Source: Trypethelium eluteriae
Taxonomy: Eukaryota
Direction of reading: 5' to 3'
Length of the DNA stretch: 64,000 bases
NCBI GenBank assembly: GCA_051942245.1
Contig: JAVECL010000039.1
Span: 1-64,000, forward strand
The position numbers were made by a program, and so were the translations under genes. Within the stretch, counting starts at the first letter, position 1, and every line of letters begins with the position of its first letter. The notes beneath the pieces are model-generated. The model ran no database searches and was not told the origin of the DNA. It was given only the letters and a program-made list of their open reading frames with translations. Of this stretch, positions 2,891-59,259 are shown in pieces.

Positions 2891-5800
2891 TCAAGACAAA
2901 TAACCTTTCTCCCTCAGCCATGCTCTCACATCTTCGGCATCCCTCGTCCTCCACATATCCTTCGCTCGCACACTATCACTACTCTGCGCCAACGCGCGAT
3001 CGAATCCCTTCGTACTTTTGTCTTTGAAGAACTTCTCCACCTCATCCCACTGCTCCCGCTTCGTCAACGCGCTCGTACAAATGGCGACCACACTACTCAA
3101 CATCGTCATCCCAGGTGGCAGCACCTTCTGCAATTGCTCCCAATTCCCCGTCATCCACTTCCAGAGCGCGTCCACACCCTGCTCATGTAGCCTCAACCCA
3201 CTGATCGGCAGGTAGATATCCTGCGGCTTGACGACATTGCTGTCAAGCGGCAGTCCAAGCGTACGCTCGATGAGGTTCGAGCCCTTCGCGCGTCCGAGCG
3301 CGCGCAGCGCCGTGTTGCGCTCCTCGCTCGTCGCCGCATTCTTATACTCAGCGAGAATAGCATCGTATTCCTTGGCGCCGCCTTCCTGGAGGACGATGGC
3401 GTAGATGGCGCCACGGAGGTTAGGGTGGATGGCGGAGCGCTCGCCGGCGGTGAAGCGGGCGAACATGTCGAAGGCGGCCTCGCGGGTGGAGGCATCTCCA
3501 GCGAGGGCGGCGCTGCCGAAGAGGAGCGACTTGAATTGCTGGGCGACGTGGCCGTCGGAGTCGCGGAAGGTCCAGCCGAGCTGGTGGGATTTGGCGCTGG
3601 ACAGGTCGCGCTGGAAGGCGCGGAGCGCGTCCTTGGTGCTCTGGTCTTCGAAGAGCCAGGTGGCGCGGACGGAGGAGAGGCGGGAGAGAATTTCGTCCCA
3701 GACAACGAATTCGGATTCGGAGCTGAAGCTTTGGAGCAGGGAGAAGAGGGCGGATGTCTTTTGATAGCCAGTGGAAGCAAGTGCGCCAGCATCCGCAATC
3801 ATACCTGCTCGGTCTTCAGTCGAGAGAAGGCCCTTCCTTGCAGCGTTTCCAAGTTTCTCCATCCGTTCTGGTGTGTAGGAAGTTCGGTAAATACCCGAAT
3901 GGTCAGCATTCAGTTTGAAAAAATCCAGATCATCGACTTTGAAGCTCTCCTCCCTCTTCGATAGGACAAGGTCCTTATTAACTCCATCTTTAGTACGTAG
4001 CTCAAGAAACACAGGATACAGTGTCTTATCTTCATCTGGCTTAACATCAGCCGTTCGCAAGAATCGGTTCTGCTTCACGTGAATAGATTTTGAGCTTGGA
4101 TCTTCCGTCACGTGCACGACAGGAAACCCGACGTTTTTCGTCCAGATATCCATGACCTGTTCCACATCCTTACCACTGGCATCGCTTAGAGATGCCCAAA
4201 GATCTTTAGTTTGCGTGTTCCCATAGGCATATTTAGCCAAATATCGACGAATACCCTCCATAAAAGTCTCCTCACCGAGATAGGTGGAAATCATGCGGAG
4301 GACGCATGAGCCCTTTGAGTAAGAAATGGCATCAAATATTTGGTTGATTTCGTCCGCTCGCTTGACTGGGACTTCAATTGGGTGACTACTTCGTAACGAG
4401 TCGAGCGAAAGTGCACTCTGCAGATTATCTGCAACATCGAGTCAGTTACAACGGTGTTATGGGGCCTTTCGTGCAGGACTCACCGGTCACATAACCCTGC
4501 CAGACCTTCCATTCCGGGTAGAAGGCATTACAAGAATACCACGACATCCACGTTGCGAATCCCTCGTTTAGCCACAAACCATCCCAAAAGTCCATGGTCA
4601 CAAGGTTGCCAAACCATTGATGTGCTAGCTCGTGCTGGACAACCTCGGCAACGCGCTGTTTTGACGATGCGCTGGCGGTTTTCTGATCGAACAAGATGTC
4701 GACGACCCGATAGGTGACTAAGCCCCAATTCTCCATAGCACCAGCGCTAAAGTCCGGTATGGCAGCCATGTCCATTTTTGGGAGGGGAAACTTGCTGTTG
4801 AACTTTTTTTCGTAGAACTCTAGGGTTCGAGCGGCAAGTTCGAGGGAGAATCGGCCGTGTTCGATATCCTTATCTGGGGTTGCAAAAACGCGAATGGGTA
4901 CTCGAAAACTGTTCGTTTCAATTGACTTCAACTCGCTGACGATAAATGCCAAGAGATAAGTCGACATAAGAGGAGAGGTATTGAATTTGTGGGCAATCCT
5001 CTTGCCACCAGAGATTTTTGAGTCGACCTCTGTCGCGGAAGCTTCGTCCATGTTACTCAGACAGGTCAGATGTTTGTCAGCGATCAGAGTGACGGTAAAG
5101 CGGGCCTTGAGGGCAGGTTCATCCCAACACGGAAATGCTCTTCGGGCATCTGTGGCCTCCATCTGTGTCGTCGCCATCCACTGCTTTGATCCATCAGACC
5201 CCTGCCAGGACGACCTGTAGAAACCCGCCATGTTGTCGTTGAGTGTGCCCGTGAATGTAAGCGAAAGCTTTGCCTTGCTCCCTGCTGGTATCGTCTGGTC
5301 GAACGAGAGTGTAGTCGTTTGAGCGTCCGCATCGTGCGATAATTGCGGCGACGAGGTAATAAGGGATGAACCGGAGCGAACTTCGGATTTCTCGATGTCG
5401 AGTTCTAGGGTGTTGAGTGATATTGATTTTGTATCCTCCAAGACGTCCAGACTGAGAGATTGTTTAGCGATTGTGCTGGACCATCAGTGTGGAGAAGCCT
5501 AGCTTATTGGCACACACTCTATATCCACCTTGCCATCATACTTAAAGGTTTGGAAATTGGGTTCTAGCGTGAGGTCGTAGTGCGTGGGCTTCACATTCTT
5601 CGGCAACACTTCTCGACCCTTGGTGATGTCCAAGCTACCACCAGCCTCTTCCGTGTCTCGGTGAAGCTTGCACATGTTTCGCCGATATGAACAATGTCTC
5701 TTAGAGCCAGTAGTGTTAGAGACTCGCCCAGCTGGCCTATGTGTTGGCGGAGATCTACAAGAGAAGGGCGCAATTGAGCAAATGCCAGAAAAATTGGAAC

Positions 5801-5978
5801 GAAATCTCAACGAAACGACGGAGGGAGAAGTGGAGTAGAGGGCGCGAGGCGGGGAAGAGTCCAAAAGAAAGTGCGCTATGCTCCAAGATCGGCTTCGGGA
5901 GGCGCTTGTAGCGGTAAGAAGGGTGGAATTGTGCCGGGCAATGGCCTGATTAATGGGGCGGAGAGGTAGGTGCTGCAT
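2891..5978 (-). CDS. ape2: M1-family alanyl/puromycin-sensitive aminopeptidase; introns 5452-5517 and 4429-4483; alternative start at 5675
   Basis: GAMENWG and HELAHQWFGN...NEGFA (HEXXH-X18-E) motifs; ERAP1-like C-terminal domain; both splice junctions keep the frame. Confidence 0.95.
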
Positions 5979-8413
5979 GGATATACGATCCCCAGGAATT
6001 AGCGAGCGGTGTAGACTAAGGCTATCGGTAGCTATCGTGCTGGGGGAGTTCTGATGCTGCAAGTCATGGTCATTAAGATCATGTGGAGAGCTTTGGAAAA
6101 CGAGCGAGACTGGTCGGTCGGCGATCCCGCTAGGCGGACCAGGAAACTCCGCACCCGACTTCATCCACAAACCATCTTGCTTCTTTCGTGTCAACGCAAA
6201 GAACGCTCCCGCTGTCTGCTTGCTTTTCCGTCGGCCTGCTGGGTGTTAGATCAAACTGATCGTGCTTTGCGAGACTGATACTCCGCACGTTTGAGGCACC
6301 TGTCTTCTACAACATAGGCAGAATCGTCATAGGTTAAGCGGGACATTCCACCTCTTCAGGCCACCGGTCAACCCCGTCTCAGTTGATGAGTGAGACAGGG
6401 CATCAAATGCATAAGCTCAAACCCTCTCACCAAGTCGATCAAGTCGGTAAAGAAAAGGGCATGTGATAGATATTCTGGTGTCAGGTCATCGTGGCAATGA
6501 CACAATGAACTCGTAATAACGTGGATCGTGGGTATCATACACCTGAGCATCGAATGCCATTGGCCGTTTGGGAGGAATGACACCGTATCTTTGCTTAAAG
6601 CATTCCAGGCTGGTGATGTTTATGGAGTCTTCAGGCTGATGTCTGACCGTCATAACATCGACCTTTCTTCTCATGCAGACGGCGGCAAAAGCCTCGTTGA
6701 AGACTACCTGAGGTATGTATTCGTCAGTGCTAATGTCGATACCTGCAACGTTCGGCTTTTCGCTCTTCCTTCAACTCATTCTGCAGGAGCGTAATCTCAC
6801 TGCACCATGCCACTTCTTTGCGGTCGAAAACTGCCGGAGAATGTCAGAAACACATCTAAGGAAAATATGATTTCTCACCTTATTCCCCAGGTTACGTCTT
6901 ACCATCTCCTGCCCTGGTTGCATAGTACCCTGGCGCCAGAATCGGATCCAAAGATGCTACCGCGAATCACCTCTTCGACTAAGCCTTGATAATGCTATCT
7001 TGCCAAAGAACTTCAGATAAATAGCACTCTAATTCCCTGATGAACGGGTTGTCAGCGTTGTGATAAAGGCCCTGTTACTTTTGAGCAAGTAGTGACAAAG
7101 ATAAACCTTTGGATTGACCATCCACAAACTCGTATACACAACTCTGAAATCCCGAAGTGTCTCTCCTATCTCTTCAAACAGCAATCGATGTCCATTTCGC
7201 AGTGCTTGGCAAAGAACTTGTGTTCATTGTTGGTTACCGTTTCTCGTCAGAGATTGAGTGGGGCAAAAAGGTGGCTCATTGGCTATTGTCATGTGCTTAC
7301 ATGCAGAATCGCACTGCACGTAGCACTGATTCTCGCCAGGACTTTCTGGTGCTTATTGTCTCGAGTTAAGGCTGCATACACGAATACACCGTCTCTTCCT
7401 TCTAGTTACCCCAAGTTACTATTCCTTACCTCCTCCCTACCGCAATACGGCCCTGCAAGATTGTTAGCACCAACATCCCTGCCCTCGGACGTAGCCATCG
7501 CCCTAAGCAAGCTTTGCTTTCACGGCAAAACATGTGACAATGTGTTGAAGACATATATCCATTGATATACGTAAGCATCTAGGCTAGCAGGCTATAACTT
7601 TGGTCTCAGCTTCACACTGAAGATTCTCTCAAGGTGTCACGCTGCTCTGCCCTTTCATTCTCCACTCCCATGTTCAGCTACTTACACCGCCGCTGTGCCA
7701 CTGTTAATCCGTACCCAACCCCTTGCGATCAATTCCTTGAGCAGTATGACAAGCATGTAATCTTCGCCAGCACGTCTCTGTTTGACGTATTGAAAAGGTG
7801 TGACCATCCATGCACGCCATACCCATTCCTCAAGCTCCAGGGACAGGCAGAACGGAGGAAAGGCAAACCAGATAAACTGCCGTACGGGCGCCACTGATCC
7901 ATGCAAACGCCAGACTCCAGATCGGAGTCATCGTAAAAAACATTGTAGGACAAGGCAGAAGGAGAAAATGACGGGAAGAGAAGAGAAGGAGAGTAGAGTA
8001 GCCGTTCCATTCATCCATAGTTGCCCAGAATCCTACTGTGTTACGCCGAGTAGAGTTCCCATATTCATCTGGGTAGAGACAACAAAGTGGGTATCGAGAG
8101 GTGGCTCGTACTCTCCTTGAAAGGGAAAAAAAGGAATAATAATAAACGACATGCAACACCATCCTCTTGCGCCGGGTGGAATACATCGTTTGAAGTTCAA
8201 AACGGTGGATCGAGAATGCCGTTCATGATCAGACAAAACGAAATGAAATAGGTGAAATCGACGACGACAACGCCAATGCGTCAAGAGCCATAGGTGAAGT
8301 AGATTCCACGATTAGCCCAGAACGCCAGGTATCAACCGGAGTCGAGATGGATGCCAGGGCTTTACTTGTAGAGTATCATGTCGGGAATGATGGCGATGGA
8401 CCATTGATCATTC

Positions 8414-18316: not shown

Positions 18317-20551
18317 CTATACCTGGTCAGTCTCGCCTTCCTTGGCCTTGCCCCTCCTCTTCCACCCTGTCCCCCACGTCTTCCCAAGCTCGAATCTGGG
18401 AAATGGGTGCGCCGCTCCGCTAAATACAACCTGGTCTAAGGGAAGCACGTCCTCTGGTCCAAATAAGAGATAAAACCACTTCAGGGTCTCCGCCATCCAC
18501 GCGGGCGACATGTTATCGCGTTGTGGTGGCGGCGTCAGCGTCACATCGTCGAGGCTCGTGTAGCCATTACGCGCACCGGCGTCGGTGTGCTGGAGGAACG
18601 ATTCGAAGATATCCCAGCCCCAATGGCGATAAGTCACGTCACCAGTGAGGCGGTAGAGGTAGAAGATGGAGGCGATGGTAGAAGGTGATTGATAGTTGGC
18701 CGATTCACGGACGTCGGATTTGATGATGTAGTCGCGATGCCAGTCAGTGTCGGACGGGGAGTTTAAATCGGCGGCGGAGTTGATGATGCCATCAGAGAGC
18801 ATATGTGGAGGGTCGGGGATGTGGAAGCGGGCGGACTCAGGGGCCAGGCCTGTTGGAGTGGCTTTATACATGCCGTAGCAGGTCTGAAGGAGTCTTTTGG
18901 CAAGGCTGAGTTGGTCTTCTTGTTCTTCGTGCCATTGAAAGCTCTTCTTTAGCTCAGAGATGGGTTTGCCTCCGGTCAGCGCCAGCGCTAATGTACCAGG
19001 AACGGAACAGGAGGAATGCATCATTTTTGGATGAAGTGGTCCATCTAGCCCATTGGGTCTCTCCCCAATGAAGGTCAAGTTTGCTGTCTTTGAATAAGCG
19101 ATTAGGTTCTTACGCATGCCAGTAAAAGCCTCTTTCCACATGTCATGGTAGACTTCCTCTTGTTTTGAGGTTTGTAGATATTGTTTAATCAGGTCCTCTG
19201 TATCAGGCTATTAGCGAGGTCCTCACGAATTATCATATCTGGCCTTACGATAATAGTATTCTCCACCACTCCCAAGACGAACCCCTTGGCCTTGGAAGGT
19301 GGCAGAGTCAGGCTGAACGAGTGAGGGTAAAAGTCCGTCACTGGCGCCAATCTCATCAAGTTTTTGGATGGCCTTTTCAGCAGTCTCCCAATAGTGCTTC
19401 TCTCCCGTCATTTTAGCCACGTATTTCAACTCTAGCTGAACACCTCCGACCGAGGCACTCGACGTTGCACCCTCATTGTTCTGCGCTGCGATACCTTTCA
19501 TTGTTTGGAGATTGACGTTCGCGTACGGAATGCCAGTCTTGGATTCAAAAGCACCCAAAACCCGATCAGCCAAATCGGCAACCTTCTCTCGGTACAGGTC
19601 CTCACCAGGCGAACCTTCTATAACAGATATAGGTGCCATATCAGGGAAATCTGTCGACAGATAGTGGGCTGAGAGCAGACCGCCTAATATTTGAGTCGTC
19701 ACCTCGAAAGTTCCAACTTGATCCGAATTGATATCGAAATTCAGCGTCGTTGTTATCCAATCCCGCGCATGTAAAAGCTCGGCCGTCATATTCATTATTA
19801 TTAACGTATCCAGAGCATCCACAATGATCCATCCCATGCCATTCGATCCCTCGATAATCTGCCTTCCTCTCTTGGAGAGTGGTCGATATTCGTCGAAACC
19901 CCAAGCATGGTCCTCATATGCAGCCCATGAAATTTTGAATACGTCCCTCACCTGTTCCATCCTCGTATCCCAGTCGATACCCTGCGGCCGTGAAGTTTCC
20001 CACCATAAAATTTTGCCAAAGCCCCATCCAAGTGATCCCGTATAGAGCAGGCCGGCCCAATAAATAAGTCCTATGAACAGTAGTACCAGGCTCGCCAGAA
20101 AGCGCTTTTGTTCGATTAAAGGTCGCCTCCTTTTCGACGCGGAATAGTGATACGGCTTGTCCTTGTACATGGGCAGTCCCTTTTTCTCCCCTCCAAATAC
20201 GCTCCCTATCTTCTCCGCCACTCCATTGGCATATCCATTTTGCATCTTTCGCTCCCGTTCCTTCTCTGAACCCGCCCACATGCGCTCTTCATATCGCCGC
20301 TGAGGGTCGCTCTGTATGGGAACATTGCGGGGAATTGCATGGGGCATTTGTCCACTTGCATTCGCGCTGGAAGCTGCCGCGGGGATCAGCGCTTCCGGAA
20401 CTTGAACCCTGCTATCGCTAGCTTCACGTTTCTCTTCTTGGACGCTTGAAGGAATGGAGGTAGAGGCACCTGGAACTCGGGTGTGGAAAAGGGAACTCGG
20501 GGAGGTGCCGCGAAGGCTACTGCGCAGATTGAAAGGGTCGCGGCTGTTCAT
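18317..20551 (-). CDS. GH47 ER alpha-1,2-mannosidase (Mns1)-like type II membrane protein with degenerate active site; intron 19198-19248
   Basis: LPMYKDKPY + TM helix, AWGFDEYRP, MGWIIVDALDTL, LGGLLSAHYLS, TGLAPE, AETLKW, AHPFP. The reading frame is intact across the intron. Confidence 0.93.
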
Positions 20552-21797
20552 GCCATGAGATAAAAGGAGAGGTCTTTCGGCTTGAAGACAATTTCTTCGA
20601 AGGAGCGCTAGCTTATTCTGGGGTAGTAAACATTGAAGTGGTTGAATGGAGTGAATACGTAGATGGCTTCTTTTATGGTGCAGGGGTGCACCGCCAAGAA
20701 CCGGAGCTTGACCATCTTGTGTAAGGTATATTCCCAGAACACGCCGTAAGAAGCGACAGAGAACAATGGAGTTGCAAAAATGTCCAGGTCATTCTTGGGG
20801 ACTAGCTATGCACTCTAGTACTTGGAGGTTACCTAGACACCTAATTTTATTTCAAAATACCGGTGTTTCATGCAGGAACAGTCCAGAGGCCGGGATTGCT
20901 GCATGACGTATTCGAGAAGCAAGGTAAATACAATGCTTAGTCCATACCACAACATTCCTCATTTTCCTCGTGTTATTTATTTGTTAAAAGATATCGACCA
21001 TCACCCTTGATACTATCAGAATCCAACTCACTTCTGTCGAAATACATTGAATTACCCAGTTACTCTGAACCTAACCAAATAACTTCACTGGGCCATGCTA
21101 CCTCTGAGGAAATTCTCTACATCTATCAACTTTGTTGGCTCCCGTTATGACCCACACACATCCTAACTTCTGCATCGTGATCGACGCTTTCTCCGAGCAT
21201 GTCAGTGATCAAACTTGCTGCGATGCTAGCGAAAGGATGTTGCTTCACCCTTCCTGGCGTGACTGTGCACAAGTTGCCGCGGATCGATGCAGTGGTCACA
21301 CTATTTTGGTGAAGCATGAATGCCAACATTTCCTCATGGCAGAAGATGTCTGAGTAGCTCAATGGGGGGTAAGTCCTTCAGACTTGGGAAGTCAAGCTGC
21401 TAGCCGATTGGCTGAACGAAACCTGGATGTGTACGAATAGCTCGATATAGATCCATTGAGCTTCCATTTAGATGATAGAGCAATCTTGAGCCTCAGTACG
21501 CTGTTGTCGATGGTTACTATAGCGTCAAAGCAGGGCCCTCAGCTTTAGGTGACAAACCATTGCGGACACGCCCTACATTTCGACAGGAAAACTGATATGA
21601 TTTCAAAAATGAAACAATGATGAGTGATCAAAATGGTAGAAGGTCAACAAGATGGCAAGCTTAGCAGAGAAATTGTCTTTCATTGATCTGCACGATTGCA
21701 GCGACGATGCCGGTGCGAAAGTCATACTCGAGAACGCCTACAAATGATGCCACCACTCCATATTCCCGTGGTTATTGGTTTGCCGAGGTCCGCCAGC

Positions 21798-32700: not shown

Positions 32701-33906
32701 TTAGCGTGGAGTAAAGACGATTGCGGGTGCGGCTCGACTTGAGCATGCCTTGCAGCCAGCAGCGCATGGGCGGCGGAGGCTCCGGGTGGAAGCCCGGAGG
32801 CCTAGATCGTGCCTGCGGGACCGGAACAGAGGAGCAGCAGTGCGACATGCCCTGAGGATCTGCGTTGGCGGGATTGTCTCTCTGTGGCAGCGTTTCGCTG
32901 TCGGTAGCTCCTCGAGATAGTCCACCCACGTCTCGAGGCAATTGCGACCCCGCTTCCTGCTAGCATTCTCGAAGTCGAAGGGTTCTTTGACCTCTTCCAT
33001 TGGAGCCGGCCCGTATGGAACGCGCCGGAGGCGCTTGTCGGGAACGTCGAACCACCATGGGCGGAACCCTCGCGGTGGCTCAATGCTGGGGACGCGAGGG
33101 AGGTTCCGAAACTTCCCGCTCGTTGCCCGTGTAAGGGCCAATTCCCAGGCAAGCCGCTTCCCGCGTTCGTCGGGGACGTATCGAACCAGGTCCCCTTTGG
33201 GTTGGGCCTGACGACGAAGGCGAGCGAGCTTACGGGAGGCTGCTGTGGCTCTCGAGTATCGGTCACGTTTCATGACCGTTTGGACGAAACTCTTTTCGGC
33301 AAACGCAGCCTCCAGCTTGAGCGTCAACTCTTCGATGACATCCTTGGGAGTCGGATCGTCGACCACGAGGGCCATGTCCCCAAATAGATCCCTGATGTCC
33401 GCCTCCCCGGTTGGGTGCACCCATTCGACATCCCCCTCTCGACGAGCTTCAATTTGCTCGACAAGGGAGCATCGCCTGCCATCCAGTGTGGAATCTGGGT
33501 GTTTATCGGCGAGTTTTTCGATGAGCGAACGGTACGAATCTGTGTTCGCACCTTCCTCCACCCCCTCCTCCTCTTCGTCTTCCTCGACAGCCGATCCGTC
33601 ACGGTACACCCAGAGCTGAGGACGGTCGGCTTTGGCCTTGGCTGTCGGGAAGCTTGGAGCCTCCTGAGATGGCGCCTCTAGGAAGGTCGCCAAATCGAGA
33701 CAAGCCATCTTCACCTGGAGCTGGGCCCGTGAACGGAAGGCCCTCTGCTTGGATGCCCAAGCAGACCGACAGCTGGGCCTCGCCTCCTCTGCTCTCTTCC
33801 ACGCGCGGCCACTTTGGAGTGCCTCGTGCGGAAGGCGTGTTGGCTTGCTGCCAACCTCATGAGAATAATAGCTCTGCCGAGCTATCACCGTTGGCTGAGG
33901 TTTCAT
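32701..33906 (-). CDS. Hypothetical orphan protein (~400 aa), no recognised domain
   Basis: Long stop-free, GC-rich, intronless ORF (408 codons from TTG 33927; first ATG 33906) with an acidic tract and basic NLS-like clusters. Confidence 0.55.
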   Translation of the reverse strand: MKPQPTVIARQSYYSHEVGSKPTRLPHEALQSGRAWKRAEEARPSCRSAWASKQRAFRSRAQLQVKMACLDLATFLEAPSQEAPSFPTAKAKADRPQLWVYRDGSAVEEDEEEEGVEEGANTDSYRSLIEKLADKHPDSTLDGRRCSLVEQIEARREGDVEWVHPTGEADIRDLFGDMALVVDDPTPKDVIEELTLKLEAAFAEKSFVQTVMKRDRYSRATAASRKLARLRRQAQPKGDLVRYVPDERGKRLAWELALTRATSGKFRNLPRVPSIEPPRGFRPWWFDVPDKRLRRVPYGPAPMEEVKEPFDFENASRKRGRNCLETWVDYLEELPTAKRCHRETIPPTQILRACRTAAPLFRSRRHDLGLRASTRSLRRPCAAGCKACSSRAAPAIVFTPR

Positions 33907-35858
33907 CACGCGTGTTGCGCTGCTCAAATTAGTTCAATGCATTTCGCGATGAACTCGAGCCAGATCACGAACTGGACTGGAGCTATCCCTTTGAGGATAT
34001 GTCTTGTGAGTCGTGACCCACGACTACTCGATAGGGCGATGCCCTTAAGGGCATTTCTGGTGGGTGAAAGGACGGTTTCCATCGCTACCTACAGCTTGCC
34101 ATTAGCGATCGAAAACGATGCAGTAAGCGGTTATGCTGAACGTACTTATAGCGTGGACAATGGTGATTTCAGAGATGTGCAACTTGGGAGCACCCCAGAT
34201 AGATGATGAGATGGGCTATGAAGGTGTCTGGAAAATTGAGGATGTTTGTAAGTGGTCGATGCGAAGTGGGTGAAGGAAGAAAAGCTAAAGGTGGAGGTGG
34301 AGCCAAATTATATCTGGGAAATTCTAAGGCAGCAGCGCCCAGTGCAGCTTCTGCAGTGTGATACAGCCATCACAGTGTTTGGTGTTTTGAGGCCCGGGAT
34401 TTGGATCGCGTTCGGGATATGACCGTGTGTTGGTGAGAAAGGGGTCGAGCAACGCCCGACACTGCAATCTCGAACTAACTGTGAACCTAGAGGTTTCCCC
34501 AGTCGTTTGCTCGAATTCGATCCTTGGCGAGAATTTCCAAACGCCTGTCCTGCTTTTAGTGGTCAATCTAGCTGTGATCTCCACCTTCTAGGCATCATTT
34601 TCAAATTGCTTGGATCACACAACCCCAACCTCTTGAAGAAGCTGGGGTTACATTGAGTATGTACGCCCTGAATCTGTACAGCCTGGCTTGGAAAATCTTG
34701 CAAGATTGGCTGTAGTCGAAGCATGTGACCTCCCAAATCACACAAATAATTGAGTCTTCAGGGCCGGTGATCTACGGAGAGAGCGGGGGTTGCGCCTATA
34801 TTGCATGATCTAGTGATTCGCGGTTTATGGACAAGCTCTTCTAAATTATCTGCTGATAGACAACATCACTCAGAGATAGTATACGGAAGGATACTCTAGG
34901 TATTGTGAAGCAGGGCCAACAGTCCACACGTTTATATATGACATTTCTCTACCTACCTGCAACCACAGACACCTCGTAGGCAAAAAGGCTGAAGCGATGC
35001 CAAAGTATCGAGTAATATTTAGGAAGAGGATCGAAAAAATCTAAGAGGGAGTTTTGAAGGTAAGTCCGGCGCCCGGTCCTTGCAATTTCATGAACAGCCT
35101 TTGCATGGCGGTCTTATATCTGGAGTCGGATTAAGCTAGAGAAGCAAGCATGAAGGTGAGGCGGTTTGGATTGCGTCCTATCCATCTCTGTCTTAATGTT
35201 ACCGAATCGCAACAATTATGGAACCAAAGAGTCTAAACTTCGCTCGTTGACTTGGTATCATGCCGTTGCTCATAGCAGTGGTACAGATGGTCGTGATATT
35301 TGCAGTATAATAATTTACACAATGTCGTCGTGGTATCTTCATTGATGCTATAAGCTCCCCCATTTCCTTTAGTTCGTTAGCATCTATGTCCTCACACAAA
35401 ACTTGGACAATATGCTCCACAACAGTCAGACGGATGTCTGCGTCGGTGAGACTCACTTCAGGTACACAAAGCCTGTACGACACCCTGAGCTTCTCCTTCG
35501 TTTGGAGCCTTTGGTCTTGTGGAGCCTAAGTCAGACGACGCATGACGCTGTTTCGGCGGTAGTGCTGATAGCAGAAACTGGATGCCGACAACCACCCAGA
35601 CTCTTCCATGATCTCCTGGGCACAGCAGTGGCGCCGGCAAAACTGCTGTCGACCCCACGGGCTGCGGTGTTTCTATCACCTTGTCCTGCCCTAAAATAAT
35701 TGATCAAGGGATATTGCAGGAGATATGTCTTACATCTCCCTTTCGAGGTCTGCTGGAAAGCCTAAGTCTCTGTCGCACACGTCGCTTACGGGACCCAGTG
35801 GAAACATTGTTTCGCATGGCCCCGTATCCTCCAGAAGGGTCAACAGTTGAATGCTACA

Positions 35859-54706: not shown

Positions 54707-55388
54707 TGTGTAGCAAGGTGACGGCTGTCAATTATAAGTTCTCGCGACAGGGCCAGGTTTAACTGTTTGCGGGGCCTATTAAAAGAGAGATGAGAGAACA
54801 GCAAACCGGTTCAAGTTCACGTGTAGGAACGAAACGCGCCGGCCGCCTTCAAAGCTCTTCAAAAACTTGACCTATTTGGTCGGAAGGGCGGTCGCACTCA
54901 TCATTTGGGTTGGGCGTGGAGGGTGAAGAAGTTCGAAAGAATGGGTTGAAAGATTATTTGAGCCGCATAGGTGGCCTCTCTAAACCGGCGACGATCAGCG
55001 CCGAACCCCACAGCCACCTGTGCCACTTTTCAGCCCTATCGGCCCGAGTTGCTACTTACAGCATCCGCGCAGAGTGCGGAGCAGTAGGCGCTCCGTACAC
55101 AGAATCTCGAGCACATCCGCAACTATTTCTATGCATGACTCGTCTTTGCAGCTCCTCGCGCCTCGCCTTCCATGCAAATCGCCGGAAGAACACCGATGGA
55201 GCTAGTGATCAGAGCCTGGCTTCTCGAATGCCTATCATGCTATGTGAAGAAATGGATGTAAGGCATTCAGTATTCAAAATTGGTATCAAGCTTTTTGACT
55301 ATACAGCTGACGCGACTCATGGGAATATCCTACACTGTTTCAAAACCTCTCCCTCTGAAGAGGAAACACAAGCCACTCGAAATGTAAT

Positions 55389-56482
55389 CTACGCGTCGGA
55401 AGCATATGGGCCAAGACCGAACCACATCATGTCTTGGGTACTAGACGGAAACATGAGCTTGCAGAAGATAGAGAGAGGGGAGGAGATCATACCCATTGAT
55501 CGGAACAGTATGTCCAACATTAATTGCATACACTCCTTGCACTGTGCCAAGTGGGTTTTGAGTAGTGACGCCCCAAATGTCAGTCGTGTAGCCGGATTGT
55601 GGGAAGTTGGCCTCGACTTTCTGAGGGCTCTGGGAATTGTACCCGAAGACGCCAGTCCACTGCTTTACCGTTTCGTTGTAATTCTCGGGATAAAGAGTTG
55701 TGTCAATGGAGCCGTGGTACACTTGGAAGCGAGGACGAGCGCCGGTATAACCTGAGTACATACTTTCGGCGATACTTGCCCAAAGTTGTGAAGTAGCAAT
55801 AGAATCGCCCTGTGCGCATGTTGAGTTCCAGGCGTCAACTTGGTTGCTCGAGGAATAGAAGCATCCAGCTGGGACACCGGAGTAGGCCGTCGCTGCAGCA
55901 AAAAGCTCAGGATACGTCGCCGCCATGACATTCTGTCTTGGGTCAGATACTGTTGAATTGAATGGACGCAATGGCAGTGCATCTTACCGTCATCATGGCA
56001 CCGGAACTGGACCCAGTAACAAACACTTTGGTAGCATCACCATTGTACTGACTCAAGGCGTATGTAACCATGTTGGCAATGGCATTACTATCACCACCTC
56101 CGTTATGTGTTAAGGCTGACTTTGACGATACGTCCCAGCAAGTTCCCGAGTATGGTGAGGATGGATAGATTACAATGAATCCATACTGGTCGGCCAGTTG
56201 CGCGTAGGGAGATCCGGAGAAATACGCCTGAGCAGTACCCGTGCAATAGTGAATAGCAACAATGATGGGAGGCTTGGCGACGCGATTGGTCGGGACATAG
56301 ACGTACATCTGCGTCTGTGGGGAGCTTTCAGAGGTGACCTCGTTGCGAAAAGACCATTAGGAACTTACCCCTGTGGGGTTGCTACCAAAGTTTGTAACCT
56401 GCTGAAGCGAAGAAGTTAAGGTGGGCCGCGCAGTCACACAGCTCAGCAGAGCAGTCAAGGTTGTAACGATTGAGAGACGCAT
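55389..56482 (-). CDS. axe1: Secreted CE1 acetylxylan esterase (PHB-depolymerase family), 4 exons, no CBM1
   Basis: Signal peptide MRLSIVTTLTALLSCVTA, SLQQVTNFGSNPT, AIHYCTG, GSSSG (GxSxG), YSGVPAGCF, HGSIDTTL, GHTVP; ends DMMWFGLGPYASDA*. Confidence 0.93.
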
Positions 56483-58503
56483 CTTGGAAACGAAGTTTGA
56501 TCGAGAAACTACTTTTACTACTTTGTTGAATGAATGGATTATGAAGTATGAAGTTTTACTCAACAATCTTCAAAGAAATAATCGGGTACTTATATCCATT
56601 CTCCTCCGTTGCTCCGTGTTGTAGACTCACATGATAGCCAGCTGCAAAACGATATCCGGTAGATAATACAGTCCTGAAAGTAATTAAGAGAAGTGAGCGA
56701 GTGTCACAAATAGGCAGTGATCAGCGTCAGGAAGGGATGCGGGTGGCAGATCTTCTTGGACTTTGAATAATAGACGTGTGATAATTTTCCCACTCGCGCA
56801 TCCACCAAATCCAAAGCCGAGTCCGTCCAAGAACCGTCCAATTGGAAAATGATGAAGGTGGTATGGAGGCAGTCACGCTACCCCAACTTACTCTAGAAGC
56901 AAGAGCTGTAAGGTTTCGGATGCAGGGACAGCTAGTGCAGCCGGCAAAAAAGAGTGTATTAGGTACCTTTGCCCGCTTAGTGATAGTAGTCACTGGGAGG
57001 TTGTTGGATGAATAGCCATCAGGCAAAATGAATGGGTGTCCAGTCTTGTGACCCTCTAGAAAAGTGTCCCGCCAATGCCTGCATATCAGGCTGATTGCCT
57101 AAGCTAGTGCGCTAATATACGTCTATGATAATAAAGCTGCACAATAGAAAATTGGCTTTCATTGGATCTCCGAGTTGAAGCAACGGCAGTGGAAAAAGGC
57201 ATCATTGCTGCAAAGATGAACCTTCTCTTTGCAGTGTCAGACCAAACTGGCGAAGCGAAACCAGAGCTACAAAAGGCAAAGCATGGTAGAAGAAATCCAG
57301 TATATCAACGCAGGAGCACAAGACTTCCGTGTATGAAGAGCACGTCCGGGAGGCCAGACAGCTTGCAATGGTGAGGATGAGCGGAAGAGGAAGACTGAGA
57401 GTACGTGTGTACTCCGTACTGCCCAATACCGTGCACAAAGTTATTCCGTCTTATGTATTGTATTTTACGCACCGCACGGCCCAAGGGTTCGTGGATAATT
57501 AGGCCTCAGGTAGGTTAGGTAGGTACGGTGTCCAACACCGACATCCTATATCTCTCAGCAATACCTATAGGGCTCTCAAGAACTCGTGTCGCTTACGCTT
57601 TGCCAGTCCTTCAAGATGCAAACTGATCATAAGACACACGATCTTGTGCGGCGAAGACTCCGTTAACGATCTTTCGCAAAGCTAAACCACTCGGCGCGCT
57701 GCACAGGGCATCTGTAACTCGTACCATTTCGTTTCTGCTCGAAAATCACAATGTAGGCGATCTATTGGAGATCGGCTGCTTTCTCTCACTGCTGTTAGCC
57801 AGTGCTAATGCTCATGTCATCTCGAATATCAAGCTGTGAAGCTGCTACAGCGTGTTGCGAACGAACCAAAGTGCGCAAAACAGGCAAACACCCAAGGAAC
57901 GAACAATATGACAAGCGATTGTCTTGTGTCGTTCAACCGTTTCGTCATGGATCACAGATCGCAAAGAGCTTACGTGCTGAATCTAGGACCAAGTGGACAG
58001 GAATCTTGGTACCTTAGCGAGCATCATCGACAGCGATATTAGAAGAGCGTACAGAGTGGGTGATTGCTCCTACTACTTACCAACGAGCTGTTCATATGTG
58101 ATCAGTAGTACTTGGTACGTGCTGTGCCTACTTTCGCTTCATAAGCCGAGACCTTCTAGGTAGGTTGAAAAGCAAAGCAGCGACCACATCGCGAACTTCA
58201 GAGCGTGTCGTCCGCTGGAGATTCACTTTGCGCTTATAATGTTCTAAGCGAGATCCTTTTCCATGGTTTGCAATATTCACGTTTTGCCTGCCTAGCCTTT
58301 GCTTTTCTGAGCGTGGGCAAAAGAGTAATCGTACAAGCAAAGGCCACCCTTATCAACGATTGCTAAATCACAAACTCATCCATCACGCTATGCGATATTC
58401 CCTTTTCAACATCGCGACATTACTCTTTCAGGCATAATCTCGTACCAAGAATTGCCTAAACAAAAGCACAAACTCTAGAGTTTACCTGACCCAGACCAAC
58501 AGA

Positions 58504-59259
58504 ATGAAGTCCATTCCTATCGATCCCTCTAATCTTAATATGCTACGTTTCTATCTCGAGCTTGATCGAAACCTTCCCACTCCGTTCGAGGATGCTATCT
58601 TTGTCTGCTATCAGTTCAAGAACAACCAGTCTGGCTGCAACGATGCAGATCGGCTCGAGGAAATCAGTATCGCAACAATGGACAGTCGAGATCTTGATCC
58701 CGCCTCAGTCTTCGATCCAAGATATGTGATTCAAACCCGACAAGCAGTCTTCGGAGCTCATCGGAAGCGTAAAAGAAGGCAAGCGCGGAATATCTTTGGC
58801 GCATTCGAGGAATTCCCGAATGACTCCTCCGCGAATGTGCTCGATTTCCTCTCACAAACTTTACGATTTCCTGACCCAACCACATCACGACGTCTTCGCA
58901 ATATCGTCCTCGTGAGTAGCGGGCTGGAAAGGAGCTCAGATGCGCTGATGCGTCGGCTTGGCGTGAATTGGCATTATTTCGCGCCCATCGTTGGATATCT
59001 TGACCCGCACCTTTTAGCCCGGAAAACCTTGACTCGCAAGGACGTCGGCCCAGCATTTGCCACGTTCAATCTGGTCCACTATTTTGAAATACCTACTACG
59101 AGGGACGGTCACCACAATAAAGATCCCATTGCGGTAGCCACACATGCGAACTGTGTTTTGCGCCTCCTTCTCATGTTGGGACTTATGAATGCTCGTGGCG
59201 AGGACCTCGAACCAAGGATCGCCCGATTAGAGGCCCTCGCGAAAGCGCAATTGGTGTGA
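58504..59259 (+). CDS. QIP/Gfd2-like RNase H-fold (DEDDh) homolog with degenerate catalytic motifs
   Basis: DAIFVC..., EISIATMDSRDL, RNIVLV, YLD and the final helix ANCVLRLLLML resemble the fungal QDE-2-interacting-protein exonuclease domain. Confidence 0.65.
   Translation: MKSIPIDPSNLNMLRFYLELDRNLPTPFEDAIFVCYQFKNNQSGCNDADRLEEISIATMDSRDLDPASVFDPRYVIQTRQAVFGAHRKRKRRQARNIFGAFEEFPNDSSANVLDFLSQTLRFPDPTTSRRLRNIVLVSSGLERSSDALMRRLGVNWHYFAPIVGYLDPHLLARKTLTRKDVGPAFATFNLVHYFEIPTTRDGHHNKDPIAVATHANCVLRLLLMLGLMNARGEDLEPRIARLEALAKAQLV

Follow-up and report, generated by a model that had tools for sequence, protein, structure and literature searches.

This analysis concerns a gene for an endoplasmic reticulum (ER) mannosidase I on the minus strand (20551-18317) of a 64,000-nucleotide stretch of the Trypethelium eluteriae genome (GenBank assembly GCA_051942245.1, contig JAVECL010000039.1, positions 1 to 64,000), referred to below as the window. 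ER mannosidase I, known as Mns1p in yeast and as ERManI or MAN1B1 in humans, normally starts the sugar 'timer' for the destruction of misfolded proteins. Judged from sequence comparison, the gene is the sole Mns1/ERManI orthologue found in the assembly, and there is high confidence that the orthologue proper has lost its ERManI active site, a loss that is real, family-wide and selected. Its product very probably cannot trim mannose, and by analogy with human MAN1B1 its role is likely to be non-enzymatic. A more specific reading, in which this dead sole orthologue was kept for a non-enzymatic job after its substrate and the reader of its product had been lost, is proposed below as a serious possibility standing slightly short of an even chance.

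Active site and protein layout

Residues were mapped by HMMER alignment to the solved structures of yeast Mns1 and human ERManI; the human numbering used throughout is our own count, with an offset of 239, checked against residues named in papers. The pocket of the T. eluteriae protein carries the replacements R334Q, E397S, R461G, D463E, S464Y, D523M, L525S, R597S, E599S, E602A, E657S, F659A, T688G and E689A, together with E467Q, which was placed via the fungal alignment, while E330, H524, E570, P598, E663 and both disulfide cysteines are kept. The catalytic acids E330/D463/E599 of active class I alpha-1,2-mannosidases thus read E/E/S: the acid E330 persists as E283 (19703..19705; all feature coordinates are on the minus strand), D463 has become E431 (19259..19261), where GGEY replaces RGDS, and the base E599 is lost as S607 (18680..18682). 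The calcium ligand and terminal-mannose contacts T688/R597/E663/E689 read G/S/E/A, only E663 being kept, and the lost pair T688-E689, a calcium ligand and a sugar contact, corresponds to G695-A696 (18413..18418). R597 and E689 hold the terminal mannose (bioRxiv 2025.01.29.635535, 2025.06.27.661892), and a change of R334 or E397 causes human disease (PMC5035969).

A preliminary description of this stretch had listed seven motif changes, all of which are present in the sequence, and had placed them chiefly in the active site. Counts bear this out: of 20 pocket positions, chosen by us in part from papers, 15 are replaced, whereas among the remaining 205 highly conserved columns the number is 38 (Fisher p 4e-7). 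Over the 225 conserved columns the protein has 53 replacements, whereas canonical sequences have a mean of 2 and a maximum of 11. Among the best 120 of 673 matches, E330, D463, E599 and T688 are kept in 118/118 full-length homologues, P0003 (the database copy of this protein) and a Bogoriella protein being set apart, and the same 118 are unchanged at all of 14 key positions. The replacements mainly put Ser, Gly or Ala in place of charged sugar-binding residues. The description had also called E330 the only key residue left unchanged, which holds for the set E330, D463, E599 and T688; D463 has changed conservatively, to Glu, and E663, E570 and H524 also remain. Its view that the enzyme is catalytically dead is most likely correct, given the loss of E599, T688 and the sugar contacts. 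At the sequence level, both the calcium site and the contacts to the -1/+1 sugars have been dismantled, and with them the ability to trim mannose would be gone.

The protein around this pocket is intact, as had been claimed for its frame, anchor, splice sites and fold. Exon 1 (19249..20551) encodes amino acids (aa) 1-434 and the first base of codon 435, and exon 2 (18317..19197) was read as an open frame through the stop codon. Between them lies a putative 51-nt intron (19198..19248), drawn from the DNA and the database gene model, with a GTAAG donor, a CTAAT branch-like site and a CAG acceptor, which interrupts the D463/E467 motif region. The spliced product of 727 aa is a 100% match to NCBI protein P0003, filed under Trypethelium eluteriae. 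Only 1 of 20 open-frame GT-AG pairs restores the family motif spacing; the alternative pairs were dropped because their products delete the motif. A separate public contig, possibly from the same source DNA, has the same sequence bar one letter, which makes an assembly error unlikely.

Hydropathy, Pfam and the structure model agree on the layout of the product. A cytosolic N-terminal tail (aa 1-150; 20102..20551), predicted to be disordered (predicted local distance difference test, pLDDT, <50; alignment), precedes a single transmembrane anchor (aa 151-169; 20045..20101) with a hydropathy peak at aa 151 and a model helix at 149-165, whose topology is presumably type II. The lumenal GH47 (alpha/alpha)7 barrel spans aa 205-702 (18395..19939). 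Its two exons match PF01532 with E-values of 2.7e-62 and 1e-64, and this profile match and the barrel in the model place it in the GH47 fold family. The structure predicted from 149 aligned sequences has a pLDDT of at least 90 at 477 residues; an earlier one, built from 10 sequences, reached a pLDDT of 46 and was discarded. The top Foldseek matches were yeast Mns1 (1g6i and 1dl2, template modelling (TM) scores 0.90 and 0.89 by target, E 7e-41 for 1g6i) and human ERManI, with TM scores of 0.89-0.94 overall, and a search of the ESM Atlas returned GH47 alone. The only two cysteines, C498 and C541 (18878..19009), keep the Mns1-type disulfide of yeast C340-C385 and human C527-C556 (numbering from PMC7835635 and PMC5035969). 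The tail has blocks in common with intact fungal Mns1, namely a start block, a Met69 block, an LPMYKDKPY block and a basic cluster ahead of the anchor.

Three smaller features were seen in the gene. Several homologues are annotated as starting at the second conserved Met, residue 69 (20347), and two starts may be used. A two-codon upstream frame, Met-Ala-stop (20548..20556, read from the sequence), overlaps the start codon. Through the E657S replacement the protein gains an N-glycosylation sequon at the pocket (aa 662-664), which is absent from Bathelium and from one protein of the ENA database.

Orthology, family-wide spread and selection

The preliminary description had taken the gene for a paralogue, which the comparisons contradict. 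A profile search of the contigs found 11 GH47 loci, and with the intact Patellaria Mns1 as query this locus scored 785 bits, at 52% identity over the whole length, whereas the runner-up reached 109 bits; no intact Mns1 was found elsewhere in the assembly. Identity to intact Dothideomycete Mns1 is 51-56%. A maximum-likelihood tree of 48 rows, built by a quick method and taking in five of the ten paralogues from the same assembly, nests the gene within the Mns1 group (support 99) and puts these paralogues outside it on long branches. Best match and tree, the single copy, the cysteine pair and an anchor of putative type II topology after a tail thus agree in placing it among Mns1/ERManI proteins.

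Canonical motifs are mostly present at 8 of the 10 other GH47 loci. Separateness from Htm1/EDEM, also claimed earlier, is borne out by an Htm1-like gene on another contig (C330) that has all six motifs checked. Three of the other loci depart from the canonical pattern: L009 (contig C628, 2-1564 minus) has an N-terminal anchor and unrecognisable D463- and E599-region motifs, its frame exiting the contig end; in L005 (C46, 1066-3087 plus) Asp takes the place of E330, and R597 and residues of the E689 region are altered; and L007/L015 (C547) has Ser at the R597 position, which may be an intron edge.

The disarmed form also occurs in Viridothelium virens, T. subeluteriae, Bathelium mastoideum and three ENA proteins, and half-way in Bogoriella megaspora. 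The V. virens protein differs by one residue and is not independent; that of T. subeluteriae is 91% identical, its gene model omitting the D463 region, and the three ENA proteins cover exon 2 at 75-79% identity. Seven disarmed sequences form one clade in the quick tree (Shimodaira-Hasegawa-like approximate likelihood ratio test, SH-aLRT, 100), with a stem of 0.8 changes per column and ordinary end branches of 0.06-0.57. Bogoriella shares T688G, R461G, E397S and L525S and the loss of D463, D523, F659 and E689, so that these changes go back to the family ancestor; it still has R334, E467, R597, E599 and E602, with 10 of 20 pocket positions replaced. The Trypethelium/Bathelium branch then completed the process with E599S, R597S, E602A/S and R334Q. 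With Bogoriella as a half-way stage, the order is loss of the calcium site first and erosion of the remaining pocket later.

Frames are open across the clade at 66-92% identity. When neutral drift was simulated with no indels, an open frame survived in 0/2000 runs at 79% identity, 0/2000 at 66% and 53/2000 at 92%; since drift so rarely leaves the frame open, the gene appears to be under purifying selection. This is indirect evidence that barrel, disulfide, anchor and tail are being retained, and it accords with the earlier claim of a maintained protein. Conservation is uneven, the lumenal domain being 79% identical to Bathelium and the tail 49%.

Some sequences show further erosion. In T. subeluteriae, His replaces a conserved Asp at 245, and E663 has become Gln in Bathelium and one ENA protein (P0124, P0245). 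Another ENA protein, P0158 (314 aa, the exon-2 part only), keeps E599 but is altered at the R597, E663, T688 and E689 positions; it falls outside the Trypetheliaceae clade on a long branch of the quick tree and is possibly an independent loss in another fungus.

Glycan pathway genes and competing explanations

Mns1 takes the terminal mannose off the B branch of the N-glycan, a branch begun by Alg3, and Yos9 reads the alpha1,6-mannose exposed later (PMC7835635). Genes of this pathway were sought in the assembly (29.0 Mb, 1369 contigs), and apart from Alg3 and Yos9 all 17 of those sought were present. They include glucosidase II beta, Sla1, Alg6, Alg8, PIG-M, Alg10, UGGT, calnexin, two derlin loci, Rft1 and Htm1, as well as four GT22 genes, one of them assigned to Alg12 by its match to chicken ALG12. 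The remaining GT22 genes we take, from their motifs, to be Alg9, Gpi10 and Smp3, and a Sel1-repeat gene is presumably Hrd3.

Alg3 was not found in the assembly by family search (PF05208, no candidates at E up to 10, with no positive-control genome or Alg3 protein query) or by three motif patterns, which gave no true match; scans of prokaryote and viral collections with Alg3 patterns returned 0. For Yos9, the PF07915 matches in the assembly were glucosidase II beta only, PF17880 gave none, the motif pattern produced one false match and three fungal Yos9 protein queries produced none. No Trypetheliaceae appear among the best 120 of 1304 Yos9 matches, which is uninformative because most species of the Mns1 list are likewise missing there. 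Search sensitivity seems adequate, the protein search having reached GH47 paralogues down to 24 bits and the family search having found intron-split membrane enzymes.

Two indirect approaches to these absences yielded little. Yos9 adjoins a Sla1-like gene in 10 of 71 flanks (10 of 43 metagenome loci, some of them duplicates), and no Yos9 remnant lies beside the assembly's own Sla1 (C404), which has a BRCT gene and a STE2 pheromone receptor ahead of it; this proves nothing, the adjacency not being seen in the Dothideomycete-like loci read. In the supplements of PMC9098629 (7 of 8 files), PMC11412873 and PMC7082219 no published carbohydrate-active enzyme (CAZyme) table giving GT58 counts turned up, and Trypetheliaceae are absent from the main text of PMC6909477.

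Together with the family-wide spread, the apparent absence of Alg3 and Yos9 leads beyond the preliminary description. In alg3-deleted yeast, the glycan is a Man5 without B and C branches on which the signal is exposed, and degradation is independent of trimming and dependent on Yos9 (PMC2615083, PMC7835635). Without Alg3 there would be no B branch and hence no Mns1 substrate, and catalysis could lapse; an alpha1,6-mannose signal on every glycoprotein, being uninformative or harmful, would favour loss of its reader Yos9, so that one cause could underlie three observations. With Alg9, Alg12 and Htm1 present, a C branch could still be added to Man5 and then trimmed. That Alg3 and Yos9 loss was the cause is a coherent lead with about even prospects of being right, and the chance that catalysis lapsed because the surrounding pathway had changed may be put as evenly balanced. 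As for what the protein does, MAN1B1 promotes degradation of NHK without catalytic activity (PMC5035969, PMC7835635) and acts through its stem and tail in Golgi-to-ER retrieval (PMC5035969, PMC7835635, PMC12386520). By analogy, the T. eluteriae protein might hold escaped misfolded clients in the early secretory pathway in a glycan-independent manner and return them through its stem and cytosolic tail, or take part in such a complex as a structural partner. A MAN1B1-like tail and stem role would accord with the conserved tail blocks, and the better-kept barrel suggests that the lumenal part is important as well, for binding clients or partners. The fullest version of this picture is tentative, with the balance somewhat against it: Trypetheliaceae would have lost ALG3, leaving a Man5 or an A+C two-armed Man7 glycan made via Alg12 and Alg9 and trimmed by Htm1, would have lost YOS9, so that misfolded glycoproteins are assessed with no classical lectin, and would use ERManI purely non-enzymatically, with a barrel that binds clients or partners.

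Several points weigh against this account. Conservation is higher in the lumenal domain than in the tail, whereas the non-enzymatic role of MAN1B1 sits in tail and stem and needs no catalytic domain (PMC5035969). The absence of Alg3 and Yos9 comes from one fragmented assembly: no misses among 17 genes allow a miss rate of up to 16%, and so up to 2.6% for both being absent by chance (0.25% at a 5% rate), a rough figure because Alg3 and Yos9 were not named before the first search. Alg9, Alg12 and Htm1 all seem to be intact. In Alg12 the catalytic Glu is preserved, as are the B-branch pocket residues equivalent to S37 and Q41, and changes are not in excess: 4 of 75 conserved columns differ, a number reached by 14 of the 60 homologues aligned out of 116 length-filtered ones. 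Remodelling of Alg12, considered as support for Alg3 loss, was not seen. When the B branch is lacking, chicken ALG12 still works, but very slowly (PMC13503287).

Such points lend some weight to an otherwise unlikely alternative, in which the dead orthologue has a non-enzymatic role within a normal glycan pathway, gaps in the assembly conceal Alg3 and Yos9, and B-branch trimming is covered or bypassed by Htm1 or another intact GH47 protein, which would have released Mns1 from the need for catalysis. The mostly canonical state of 8 of the 10 other GH47 loci, the intact Htm1-like gene, the intact-looking Alg9, Alg12 and glucosidase II beta lectin domain, the fragmentation of the assembly and the existence in yeast of a Mns1-independent, Htm1-dependent route (PMC7835635) are all in its favour; yet it needs two gaps to fall on just the maker of the Mns1 substrate and the reader of its product when 17 of 17 other genes are present. 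Other Dothideomycetes probably hold similar sets of paralogues, and still 118/118 listed orthologues keep the site. It is improbable, on the other hand, that the pocket was remodelled for a new ligand, whether as a calcium-free lectin, a peptide site or the seat of a new reaction with E283 and E431, possibly linked to the lichen habit. Motifs are near-identical among proteins that are 75-79% identical (HSSCS in 7/7, QSPST and FSGAAHP in 6/7), E330 is kept in 4/4 covering sequences, D463 has become Glu in both covering crown sequences, and conservation favours the lumenal domain over the tail. Against this, 16 of 26 replaced columns are invariant in five crown sequences, fewer than among kept columns (68 of 82, p 0.03) and not clearly more than among variable ones (48 of 106, p 0.19); E663 is Gln in 2/7, D523 has become M, V, T or L, and the Bogoriella set differs. 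The replacements are mostly small and uncharged, so the lectin function suggested earlier would be at best faintly indicated, and a hollowed, relaxed pocket fits the column conservation better than a new tight site.

The two remaining explanations are far less probable. Weak alpha-1,2-mannosidase activity through E283 and E431 is conceivable in that E330, E663 and the disulfide are kept, D463 has changed conservatively and the fold is intact in the model, but with E599, T688, R597 and E689 gone, as are R334 and E397, it is scarcely to be expected. Equally hard to credit is a spare paralogue accompanying an intact Mns1, or a decaying pseudogene of recent origin: a gap in the assembly could hide an intact copy, yet no intact Trypetheliaceae Mns1 occurs among the 240 matches listed, every named Trypetheliaceae protein is disarmed, and the frames are unbroken over 66-92% identity, unlike those left by the simulated drift.

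Genomic surroundings, known systems and significance

The neighbouring genes show no glycan theme in Pfam matches over 1777-62000 of the window. They encode a PITH protein, an M1 aminopeptidase, Atg1, an MFS transporter, ribosomal L38, beta-lactamase-like and NTF2-like proteins, MetRS, a CCDC90-like protein, a PhoD-WW protein, a sugar transporter, a P450, a P-type ATPase and an eIF2A/WD40-RRM protein; the long frames 5502-6245, 32704-33933, 54871-55752 and 58438-59256 had no Pfam match.

Among known systems, yeast Mns1p and human ERManI share with the T. eluteriae protein the type II anchor, the GH47 barrel and the Mns1-type cysteine pair, but have the catalytic base and calcium ligand, both of which are replaced in the latter together with most of the sugar contacts; it is predicted to be inactive. 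Moonlighting of human MAN1B1 (Iannotti 2014 and Sun 2020, as cited in PMC5035969, PMC7835635 and PMC12386520) sets the precedent for a catalysis-free ERManI job, although MAN1B1 is an active enzyme that moonlights via its stem and tail, whereas the T. eluteriae protein is a natural dead form whose barrel is best kept. Htm1/Mnl1/EDEM proteins share the GH47 fold and were formerly thought to be inactive lectins (PMC7835635), but they keep E330, D463 and E599 (PMC5035969), and are active enzymes without the cysteine pair that extend into a long C-terminal region. In acids, cysteine pair and C-terminal extension the T. eluteriae protein differs from all of them; its Foldseek match to Htm1 8zpw has E 2.6e-19 at 20% identity. 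Mnl2p of S. cerevisiae, a mannosidase-like ER protein that affects ER-associated degradation and for which no in vitro activity was seen (PMC9547274), resembles it by description only, and is an extra paralogue beside an active Mns1. The alg3 mutants of yeast and Arabidopsis model the glycan expected if Alg3 is absent, with no B branch and the signal exposed without trimming, but they are engineered and retain Mns1 and Yos9. Cryptococcus retains an active Mns1 (PMC12113280). In the open literature searched, with most subscription journals outside its scope, no natural fungal lineage of the alg3-mutant kind was found, nor did any account turn up of this gene, of natural Mns1 pseudoenzymes, a dead sole copy among them, or of the Trypetheliaceae glycan pathway.

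Whether ERManI has a job apart from catalysis is debated, the support coming from engineered human constructs. A sole orthologue under selection after the loss of its active site would add evolutionary evidence for such a job and, if the reading proposed here is true, would amount to a natural separation-of-function ERManI allele kept over a whole family. The dead protein could serve as a ready reagent for work in mns1 mutants of yeast or Aspergillus, with Bogoriella as a half-way stage. The database name 'alpha-1,2-mannosidase', borne by the Viridothelium, Bathelium and Bogoriella proteins, and CAZyme counts can mask dead enzymes of this kind. If the absences of Alg3 and Yos9 hold, these fungi would have an N-glycan pathway not described in the literature searched, and a sole ER-mannosidase copy that is disarmed yet intact hints at rewired protein quality control in this family of lichen fungi.
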